Below, piece by piece: positions 16,638-18,017 of a stretch of 64,000 nucleotides of DNA. This DNA is from a virus: IMG/VR virus record IMGVR_UViG_3300045988_163836. One strand, given 5' to 3'. The notes below the pieces were generated by a model. The model did no database searches. It was not told where the DNA came from and saw only the letters and a program-made list of their open reading frames with translations. The first letter of the stretch is position 1; every line of letters starts with the position of its first letter. Both the position numbers and the translations under genes were made by a program.

Positions 16638-18017
16638 TTGGGCACGATTATTTTGTCTATTTTGCCTTTTGTACTCATCGCATTGGTAGTTATTGTTCTT
16701 TTCTGCACGGGATATGTAAAGGCACCGCCTGATGTTGCCTATGTTATCTCTGGTCTTCACAAGAAACCGCGTATTCTCGTAGGTAAAGCTGGTCTTAAAG
16801 TTCCTTTTTTTGAGCGACTTGATAAGCTATATCTTGGTGCTATTCAAATTGATGTAAAGACTGGTTCATCTGTTCCAACAGCTGAATACATCAATGTACG
16901 TGTTGATTCTACTGTTTCTGTTAAAGTTAGCGAAAAACCTGAATTAATGACTCTCGCAGCGCAAAACTTCCTTAATGTTGATAGAGAAGAGATTGCGTCG
17001 AAGATTAATGACCTATTGGAAGGTAATATCCGAGAAATTGTAGGTCAAATGAATCTTACTGATATGGTAAGTGACCGTAAACTTTTCAGTGAAAAGGTTC
17101 AGGAAAATGCCGTACCGGATCTTGCCCGATATGGTCTTGAGCTAATTACATTTAATGTTCAGAATTTCTCTGATGACAATGATGTAATTACCAACCTTGG
17201 TATTGATAATGTTGAGCAGATTCGTAAGAAGGCAGCAATTGCCAAGTCTGATGCACAGCGTGAAATTGCAATTGCTGAAGCTGCAAATGCCAAGGATGCT
17301 AATGACGCTCGTGTCAAGGCTGCTGAAGATATGGCTATCCGCAATAATGATCTTGCTATTAAGCAGTCTCAGTTGAAGCAGGAAGCTGATACTCGTCAGG
17401 CCCAGGCTGATGCTGCGGCAAGCATTGAGGCTGAGAACCAGCGTAAGTTGAGAGACGTTGCTGCTACTGATGCTAATATTGCTAAGGCAGAACGTGAAGC
17501 TGACTTGAAGCAGAAGCAGATTCAGTTGAAGGAATATGAGCTGGATGCCCTCGTTCGTAAACAGGCCGATGCTGATAAGTATGCTGCTGAACAGCAAGCT
17601 GCTGCAAATTTGATTAAGCGTCAGAAGGAAGCAGAAGCTAAGGCTTATGAAATGGAACAAGAAGCACGAGCTATGAAGGCTAGAGCTGAAGCAGAAAAGT
17701 ATGCTGCTGAACAGAAAGCTGCTGGTATTGCCGCAGTTGGTGAAGCAGAAGCATCTGCTATTGAAAAGAAAGCTGAAGCACAAAAGAAAATGGGCGAAGC
17801 TTCTGTTCTTGAAATGTATCTCAAGGCACTTCCTGAAGTTGTTAAGAATGCCGCAGAGCCTCTTAATAATGTTGATAAGATTACCGTTTATGGCGAAGGT
17901 GGAAACACTAAGCTTGTGTCTGATGTAATGCAGACCGCGGATAAGATTATGAATGGTCTTTCTGAAGCGACAGGTATTGACTTGAAAGAAGTTCTTGGTA
18001 ATTATTTAAAGAAGTAA
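16638..18017 (+). CDS. flotillin-like SPFH/band-7 protein with N-terminal TM helix and Ala/Glu/Lys-rich coiled-coil tail (TTG start)
   Basis: N-terminal hydrophobic helix then VISGLHKKPRILVGKAGLKVPFFE. Long AEAEQKAA repeats typical of flotillin. No TAG, GC-richer. Confidence 0.75.
   Translation: MGTIILSILPFVLIALVVIVLFCTGYVKAPPDVAYVISGLHKKPRILVGKAGLKVPFFERLDKLYLGAIQIDVKTGSSVPTAEYINVRVDSTVSVKVSEKPELMTLAAQNFLNVDREEIASKINDLLEGNIREIVGQMNLTDMVSDRKLFSEKVQENAVPDLARYGLELITFNVQNFSDDNDVITNLGIDNVEQIRKKAAIAKSDAQREIAIAEAANAKDANDARVKAAEDMAIRNNDLAIKQSQLKQEADTRQAQADAAASIEAENQRKLRDVAATDANIAKAEREADLKQKQIQLKEYELDALVRKQADADKYAAEQQAAANLIKRQKEAEAKAYEMEQEARAMKARAEAEKYAAEQKAAGIAAVGEAEASAIEKKAEAQKKMGEASVLEMYLKALPEVVKNAAEPLNNVDKITVYGEGGNTKLVSDVMQTADKIMNGLSEATGIDLKEVLGNYLKK

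Follow-up and report, generated by a model that had tools for sequence, protein, structure and literature searches.

Flotillin gene in a recoded gut phage

We analyzed a 64,000-nucleotide stretch of DNA from IMG/VR (record IMGVR_UViG_3300045988_163836, here called the window), which derives from a low-GC phage (GC content, 0.298), and focused on a gene on its forward strand that encodes a flotillin. Flotillins organize bacterial membranes. The gene lies at positions 16638 to 18017, exactly where a first-pass annotation of the sequence had placed a flotillin-type open reading frame (ORF) with a TTG start and a strong terminator, and both signals are present (Table 1). The start is well supported because the closest relatives (L007-L010) keep an identical TTG and ribosome-binding site, and farther relatives have ATG at the homologous position. 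The terminator hairpin has a folding free energy of -17.5 kcal/mol (z = -5.67), and 0 of 200 shuffled sequences fold as well. Proteins 99 to 100% identical to the window flotillin are present in metagenomes and in IMG/VR.

The gene encodes a full-length flotillin, with a membrane helix, a Band_7/SPFH domain, a long helix, and a Flot domain. This is the architecture anticipated in the first-pass annotation (N-terminal transmembrane segment, band-7 core, long Ala/Glu/Lys coiled coil), and Pfam searches, profile comparison, and the structural model agree on it. Two Pfam families match above their curated cutoffs: Band_7 (PF01145; residues 29 to 207, E = 4.5e-19, 69.6 bits versus a cutoff of 23.6) and Flot (PF15975; residues 350 to 428, 35.5 bits versus a cutoff of 27). 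A family profile built from 26 sequences matches the cryo-electron microscopy chains of human flotillin-1 and flotillin-2 (PDB 9l3g and 9bq2) over their full length at E values of 2.4e-98 to 1.5e-88; the best match is flotillin-1 chain 9l3g_A (E = 2.4e-98), in which profile positions 27 to 468 align with chain residues 3 to 424. QmcA (E = 8e-16) and stomatin are weaker matches of the same profile in PDB. In the family alignment, the columns of P399, P408, and G421 show little or no variation.

The predicted structure is consistent with this assignment. The AlphaFold model lays out a helix at residues 4 to 23, an alpha/beta SPFH domain at 35 to 187, a single helix at 192 to 377, and C-terminal helices; Foldseek searches with it rank flotillin chains in positions 1 to 4, followed by the SPFH domains of stomatin, HflK/C, and prohibitin. 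Over most of the long helix, the predicted local distance difference test score (pLDDT) is 70 to 88, and Ala, Glu, and Lys make up 28.5%, 12.4%, and 11.3% of its residues. The model is a monomer computed from a shallow alignment of close homologs and has a mean pLDDT of 63.6, and the identity of the protein rests on the sequence-profile match to PDB rather than on this moderate model. Residues 4 to 22 form a hydrophobic N-terminal helix predicted to insert into the membrane; this is the sole strongly hydrophobic segment (mean Kyte-Doolittle score, 3.33, versus ≤0.6 for other segments). At the family level, the NCBIfam FloT model NF058507 aligns over positions 11 to 475 of 477 but scores 227.5 bits, missing its equivalog cutoff of 700, and we therefore do not call the protein a FloT equivalog. 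Its architecture is that of FloT, and by sequence it belongs to a divergent (Clostridia/phage) subfamily. Searches of the flotillin against PHROGs v4 and PADLOC returned no family match at E ≤ 1e-3.

Table 1. Coordinates of the flotillin gene, its signals and domains, and nearby features in the window
Feature	Position	Strand	Basis	Remarks
Flotillin coding sequence	16638..18017	+	ORF list	459 aa; TTG start, TAA stop, in-frame TAG absent
Ribosome-binding site AAGGAGA	16624..16630	+	Read from sequence	7 nt before TTG; motif also precedes the start in relatives
N-terminal hydrophobic membrane anchor	16644..16709	+	Hydropathy, AlphaFold helix	Residues 3-24
SPFH/Band_7 domain	16722..17258	+	Pfam PF01145, Foldseek	Residues 29-207
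Long Ala/Glu/Lys-rich helix	17211..17768	+	Model, composition	Residues 192-377; colinear with flotillin-1
Flot C-terminal domain	17685..17921	+	PF15975, alignment	Residues 350-428; includes conserved KITVYGEGG strand motif
Intrinsic terminator	18016..18055	+	Terminator scan, RNA fold	14-bp stem, 4-nt loop, T8 run
Metallophos_2 phosphoesterase	16040..16594	+	Pfam, phrog_547	43 nt upstream of flotillin; conserved immediate neighbor
AAA_33 kinase, polynucleotide kinase-like	15456..16025	+	Pfam, PHROGs	Stops at TAG; upstream of flotillin in every syntenic relative
Promoter-like site TTGAAA-17 nt-TATAAT	15248..15276	+	Consensus scan	11/12 matches; weak candidate
MVP-like gene	10737..13226	+	Pfam	Vault_3 and MVP_shoulder domains; context only, outside the flotillin unit
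Terminator of MVP-like gene	13229-13268		Terminator scan	

Comparison with known SPFH proteins

The window protein shares its architecture with FloT (Bacillus subtilis YuaG type, NF058507) and with the flotillins of Clostridia, aligning with them colinearly over its full length (51 to 65% identity with the Clostridia proteins). It differs from them in being phage encoded and shorter (459 versus 483 to 534 aa), lacking their C-terminal low-complexity tail and about 11 repeat residues. Unlike the yuaF-floT, QmcA-YbbJ, and stomatin-STOPP operons, the phage locus has no NfeD-type gene adjoining the flotillin: the gene just upstream is a Metallophos_2 phosphoesterase, and no match to an NfeD-type partner was found among neighboring genes and small ORFs in the window, in L005 and L189, or in the bacterial loci L114 and L102.

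The eukaryotic flotillin-1/flotillin-2 complex (PDB 9bq2, 9l3g) is the top Foldseek match (28% identity) and provides a structural model for cage assembly. The eukaryotic proteins attach to the membrane by acylation or a hairpin and form a 1:1 hetero-oligomer, whereas the phage has one gene whose product carries a hydrophobic N-terminal helix; the helical region of the phage family is also longer than that of flotillin-1, by about 25 residues. HflK/C, stomatin, prohibitin, and QmcA have the SPFH fold and membrane-attached ring assembly in common with flotillins (Foldseek E values of 5e-7 to 1e-4), but their helical region is much shorter and they lack a Flot domain. These families work with FtsH or NfeD partners, and such partners were not found beside the phage gene. 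MVP, like the MVP-like gene of the window, resembles flotillin in following an SPFH-type shoulder with a long helix that drives assembly; unlike flotillin, MVP lacks a membrane anchor and has repeat domains at its N terminus. Phage SPFH genes have precedents in the "flotillin family protein" of Vibrio phage KIT04 and the SPFH lipoprotein of phage GIB1, a reported phage SPFH gene whose purpose was called unclear (PMC13239085), but neither is of the full-length FloT type (KIT04 matches at 25% identity and in the SPFH domain only) or belongs to the lineage of the window phage.

Codon reassignment and codon usage

The window phage reads TAG as Gln. Coverage by long ORFs rises from 54 to 75 kb when TAG is read as a sense codon, and at conserved positions, relatives mostly have Gln where the window has TAG. 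Only about half of the genes contain TAG; examples of its use lie at 611-4159, 18424-19722, 21434-24548, and, on the reverse strand, 60699-63596. No suppressor tRNA was found in the window, whose sole tRNA is a tRNA-Gly at 400-473.

The flotillin gene belongs to the portion of the genome that avoids the recoded codon. None of its 24 Gln codons is TAG (18 are CAG and 6 are CAA), whereas in those window genes that do use TAG, it accounts for about 32% of Gln codons. Its GC content is 0.416 versus 0.298 for the window, and its GC content at third codon positions (GC3) is 0.31 versus 0.10 to 0.25 elsewhere; because the excess sits in third positions, it does not simply reflect the richness of the protein in Ala. 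Two upstream genes show the same pattern, namely, the MVP-like gene (GC3, 0.28; 27 CAG and 1 CAA) and a DUF2828 gene at 8620-10158 (GC3, 0.30; 12 CAG and 1 CAA), which bears out the initial impression that the flotillin is TAG free and GC richer like these vault-like genes. In the remaining genes of the window (GC3, 0.10 to 0.25), CAA far outnumbers CAG, and the TAG-using genes are nearly without CAG. The flotillin gene keeps its bias in relatives with a protein identity of only about 80% and with synonymous sites near saturation. The class extends beyond these three genes: in L001, the genes for NAMPT and NAD synthase (NadE) are also GC3 rich and prefer CAG. Host-like codons for early translation could account for the class, as could repeated capture. 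About half of the window genes are TAG free, and freedom from TAG marks a gene class and does not in itself link the flotillin to the vault-like genes. TAG does occur in the radical SAM gene downstream of the flotillin and in the genes for PhoH, the endolysin, and the membrane protein that follows the endolysin. In a published model, genes without recoded codons can be translated early under the host code, and recoded lysis and structural genes await the switch (bioRxiv 10.1101/2021.08.26.457843).

Origin, distribution, and selection

The window flotillin is of Clostridia origin and has been kept as a functional gene by a family of gut phages of roughly 100 to 200 kb that read TAG as Gln. Its closest cellular relatives are flotillins of Clostridia (Oscillospiraceae, Acetatifactor and other Lachnospiraceae, Ruminococcus) at 51 to 58% identity, including that of Ruminococcus flavefaciens YL228 at 56%, together with a flotillin from a rumen Clostridiales metagenome-assembled genome at 65%. 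The latter locus is genuine chromosome, with genes for cytochrome c552, ResB, and CcsA and a GC content of 61%. In a neighbor-joining tree, the phage copies group with this rumen Clostridiales sequence, apart from 78 other Clostridia flotillins, in 200 of 200 bootstraps; with a larger taxon set, exactly this grouping is recovered in 50 of 100.

The main flotillin-bearing phage clade sits on contigs of 80 to 200 kb. Relatives form more than 120 protein clusters (76 to 99% identity) on pig and human gut contigs that reach 211 kb, and in IMG/VR, 243 stretches encode relatives of the flotillin. Among GenBank phage records there are nine flotillin matches, the best (52% identity) on unannotated fecal phage contigs; the only annotated match in a complete cultured phage genome is that of Vibrio phage KIT04, which extends over the SPFH domain. 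Comparisons of the window gene with its phage relatives give ratios of nonsynonymous to synonymous divergence (dN/dS) of 0.016 to 0.16 at dS values of 0.36 to 1.8; the flotillin is under strong purifying selection, with well-diverged synonymous sites, and is old in its phage lineage. Recent capture, for which codon usage and phylogeny had been proposed as a test, is thus not supported: the phage clade stands apart from the 78 Clostridia flotillins, and the divergence values are those just given.

A second viral group (L227-L243; contigs of 142 to 166 kb, 34% GC) carries its own flotillin, nested among Lachnospiraceae/Acetatifactor sequences and grouped with the main phage clade in 0 of 100 bootstraps. 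Because this group never joins the main clade, large gut phages have captured a flotillin at least twice. In the second group, the gene directly follows a module of isochorismatase, NAMPT, Macro, and NAD synthase genes (e.g., L229 5404-11461).

Gene neighborhood

The window is phage DNA, with genes for gyrase B and A, RNase H, PhoH, a CHAP/Amidase_2 endolysin, a Sak4-like protein, and a DnaE-like polymerase that shares 38% identity with its counterparts in SPbeta-like and Enterococcus phages. Gene order around the flotillin is fixed in all syntenic loci: AAA_33 kinase, Metallophos_2 phosphoesterase, flotillin, a variable insert, PhoH, endolysin, membrane protein, and GyrB. The kinase probably shares a transcript with the flotillin, and the promoter-like site upstream of it (Table 1) is a weak candidate that could drive a kinase-phosphatase-flotillin unit; sites of this kind are no more numerous in the region than in shuffled sequence. 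When TAG is read as Gln, the kinase ORF gains 10 residues and reaches position 16055, beyond position 16040 where the next gene begins, and the kinase C terminus may differ before and after the code switch.

The variable insert between flotillin and PhoH is found in only some relatives; in the window it consists of a radical SAM enzyme (18424-19722; 5 TAG codons, phrog_1802) followed by a 286-aa protein (19725-20585) whose first ~130 residues are very Cys rich; the two could be a maturase/substrate pair. Upstream, the interval 13580-16594 encodes a NADAR protein (matching PADLOC PDC-M42C), two metallophosphoesterases, a GNAT protein, and the Pnk-like kinase, and relatives (e.g., L001 2152-7334) add RNA ligase, Macro, isochorismatase, PRPP-synthetase-like, NAMPT, and NAD synthase genes, so that the flotillin neighborhood looks like a counter-defense or host-takeover island. 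Farther upstream, a secreted protein with two S-layer homology (SLH) domains at 5153-6289 suggests a host that bears an S-layer, and at 6710-8492 it is followed by a 203-aa ORF that matches no family and an Eco57I-type N6-adenine methyltransferase.

Proposed role in host membrane organization

The reading that we favor, and hold with roughly even confidence, is that the phage flotillin would be synthesized ahead of the code switch and act as a membrane scaffold that keeps the host membrane organized during infection. As a TAG-free gene with host-like, GC3-rich codons, it should be translatable by the unmodified host machinery before the switch, and the protein would then be made early or in mid-infection. 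Its N-terminal helix would anchor it in the cytoplasmic membrane, and the SPFH domain, long Ala/Glu helix, and C-terminal domain would drive assembly into ring or dome scaffolds of the flotillin type. Equivalent helices build the wall of solved flotillin cages. One flotillin dome is reported to be a 44-mer (PMC13000311). The phage protein may assemble alone or mix with a host flotillin (~51 to 57% identical), adding to or replacing it as host gene expression shuts down. Such a scaffold could sustain membrane organization, fluidity, and envelope-associated complexes through a long infection, until the TAG-containing lysis genes are expressed. Remodeling of host membrane microdomains by the phage protein, as the first-pass annotation had suggested, is likewise plausible.

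Several points weigh against this reading. What is proposed for localization, oligomeric state, and action on the host comes from homology, and the structural model is a monomer of moderate confidence from a shallow alignment. Because the protein is without the low-complexity C terminus of bacterial homologs and ~11 residues of their Glu/Ala repeat, assembly properties could differ from those of bacterial flotillins, and the score against the FloT equivalog model falls far below its cutoff. That the host has a flotillin of its own is an assumption. Finally, the gene always lies among counter-defense-type genes and sometimes beside an MVP-like gene, and more specific roles fit these surroundings equally well.

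Possible role in counter-defense

One such role is that of a counter-defense or exclusion factor, which would stabilize or repair the membrane against membrane-disrupting abortive-infection effectors or block superinfecting phages rather than serve as a general housekeeping scaffold; we regard this as unlikely, though the surroundings of the gene speak for it in several ways. The flotillin is always found within an accessory region rich in counter-defense-type genes: the NADAR protein matches a PADLOC candidate family, the Pnk-like kinase and phosphoesterase pair resembles RNA repair enzymes, and relatives encode an RNA ligase, a Macro domain, and a NAMPT/NadE/isochorismatase module for salvage of nicotinamide adenine dinucleotide (NAD+). 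NAD+ modules of this kind are reported to counter NAD-depleting immunity (bioRxiv 10.1101/2024.02.11.579819), and the flotillin that the second phage group acquired on its own stands directly after such a module. In Bacillus subtilis, an SPFH protein is reported to link the phage-shock protein to the membrane (PMC8581546). All of the support drawn from the locus, however, lies in the nature of the neighboring genes. The flotillin itself matches nothing in PADLOC or PHROGs, no membrane-targeting defense is known for the host, and a general hotspot for accessory genes would fit the neighborhood too.

Association with vault-like genes

The first-pass annotation had noted that the flotillin lies near an MVP-like gene, that the SPFH fold is the fold of the MVP shoulder, and that the flotillin might act with the vault-like module. 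The MVP-like gene has at least 153 IMG/VR stretches with relatives, and copies 38 to 40% identical occur in huge phages of 462 to 735 kb (LR756500, LR756501, LR756503). Just upstream of it in the window is the DUF2828/DUF7788 protein (8620-10158; phrog_850, "RNA-binding protein"), a putative TROVE/vWA-type vault partner, and this pairing recurs in most MVP loci tabulated. A preprint on phage MVPs reports no TEP1 homolog by BLASTp (bioRxiv 10.1101/2023.11.10.566534).

We compared the occurrence of the two genes using alignment-based and motif scans of flotillin contigs of ≥120 kb, among the matches listed, in which MVPs were detected down to 48% identity. Co-occurrence declines with distance from the window flotillin: an MVP is present in 17 of 18 contigs whose flotillin is ≥75% identical to that of the window, in 2 of 4 at 62 to 74%, in 2 of 14 at 55 to 61%, and in 0 of 13 below 55%. 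Later scans added three further contigs with both genes, again among the matches listed. The spacing between flotillin and MVP ranges from 0.7 to ~16 kb, with unrelated modules between them, and in most contigs of the subfamily the MVP lies 11 to 16 kb upstream. A tblastn search of the loci with 10 kb on either side found an MVP in 6 of 44 and seemed to refute the link; we rejected that result because the MVP mostly lies beyond its reach, 11 to 16 kb upstream. The tightest linkage found is in L189 (4987-12484; a 139-kb viral contig, 44% GC), where DUF2828, two small ORFs, flotillin, isochorismatase, and MVP follow one another, and in L172 the flotillin is 2.4 kb upstream of the MVP.

A working partnership, for example, one in which the flotillin tethers or nucleates a shell of MVP-like and DUF2828/DUF7788 proteins at the membrane, would account for the co-occurrence in the ≥75% subfamily, the close linkage in L189 and L172, and the codon class common to the three genes (GC3 of ~0.3, CAG far above CAA, no TAG); we nevertheless judge it decidedly unlikely. 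The MVP-like gene and the flotillin are separate transcription units, the former closed by its own terminator (Table 1), at a distance that varies with unrelated modules in between. Each gene also occurs without the other. The slot holds a flotillin, with no MVP found by scans reaching 48% identity, in L215, L216, L217, and L219 (188 to 196 kb) and in the L033-L043 group, whereas L213 and L214, close relatives of the first four, carry an MVP; conversely, L131, L143, L166, and L181 have an MVP and an empty phosphatase-PhoH slot. Whole GenBank records give the same picture, in that the huge phages LR756500, LR756501, and LR756503 have an MVP and no flotillin match and MT835492 has a flotillin and no MVP. 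The codon class is shared by NAMPT and NadE as well.

The claim of a common fold fared in a similarly divided way. It stands at the level of structure, where the flotillin model matches rabbit MVP (Foldseek E = 3e-5), which would favor a partnership, but not at the level of sequence, where a profile-profile comparison of the flotillin with the window MVP-like protein found no significant homology (probability, 2.8%), the weak alignment falling at the expected junction of domain and helix. The two genes are associated within the subfamily and in L189, but among the matches listed, flotillin and MVP look like loosely associated accessory genes rather than an obligate pair, and we lean against an obligate flotillin-vault partnership.

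Lysis timing and passenger status

Flotillins and holins both act by clustering in the membrane, and in all syntenic relatives the flotillin gene precedes those for PhoH, the CHAP/Amidase_2 endolysin, and a 152-aa membrane protein by a few kilobases. It might on these grounds regulate lysis, organizing or restraining holin rafts or endolysin export and so setting the timing, but we consider this improbable. A strong terminator closes the flotillin unit; the variable insert (the radical SAM and Cys-rich genes, or nothing) and PhoH separate it from the lysis genes; and the lysis genes contain TAG where the flotillin has none, pointing to different expression classes. In L189, L172, and the second phage group, moreover, the flotillin is located elsewhere.

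That the phage took the gene from its host only recently, or carries it as a passenger without a role in infection, as the phage-atypical GC content and codon usage of the gene and its clearly bacterial ancestry might imply, is scarcely credible, given that one slot has been kept across phage lineages with copies differing by 20 to 45% in protein, that dN/dS is so low, that the phage copies form their own clade, and that the atypical codon usage is itself conserved among relatives.

Implications

Flotillins are a well-known family, and the name "flotillin" is already given to these proteins by automatic pipelines. Our literature searches, however, found no study of a phage-encoded flotillin and no role described for one; the papers that turned up note such genes only briefly or call their purpose unclear. 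Related reports concern a phage that integrates into the host floA gene (PMC13245101); the phage-MVP preprint makes no mention of flotillin (bioRxiv 10.1101/2023.11.10.566534), and a paper on NAD+ systems in jumbo phages of the pig gut mentions neither flotillin nor vault genes. That the flotillin is probably not an obligate part of the vault-like module limits how the neighboring vault-like genes of phages can be read.

A more specialized possibility, which we think unlikely, is that in large Clostridia phages the captured flotillin serves as a dedicated infection organelle or shield, either as membrane-protective counter-defense against membrane-disrupting abortive-infection effectors or as a membrane anchor for vault-like (MVP plus TROVE/vWA-like) shells. 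It is worth testing because there were at least two independent acquisitions, each beside counter-defense or vault-like genes, and if it is true, SPFH cages would be a recurrent viral tool.

Returning to the scaffold that we favor, widespread large uncultured gut phages keep a flotillin under strong purifying selection, and a second group acquired one separately, which together suggest that control of host membrane organization is a selected trait in these phages. As a small protein with a homolog of solved structure, the phage flotillin offers a practical route into what recoded phages do to their hosts.

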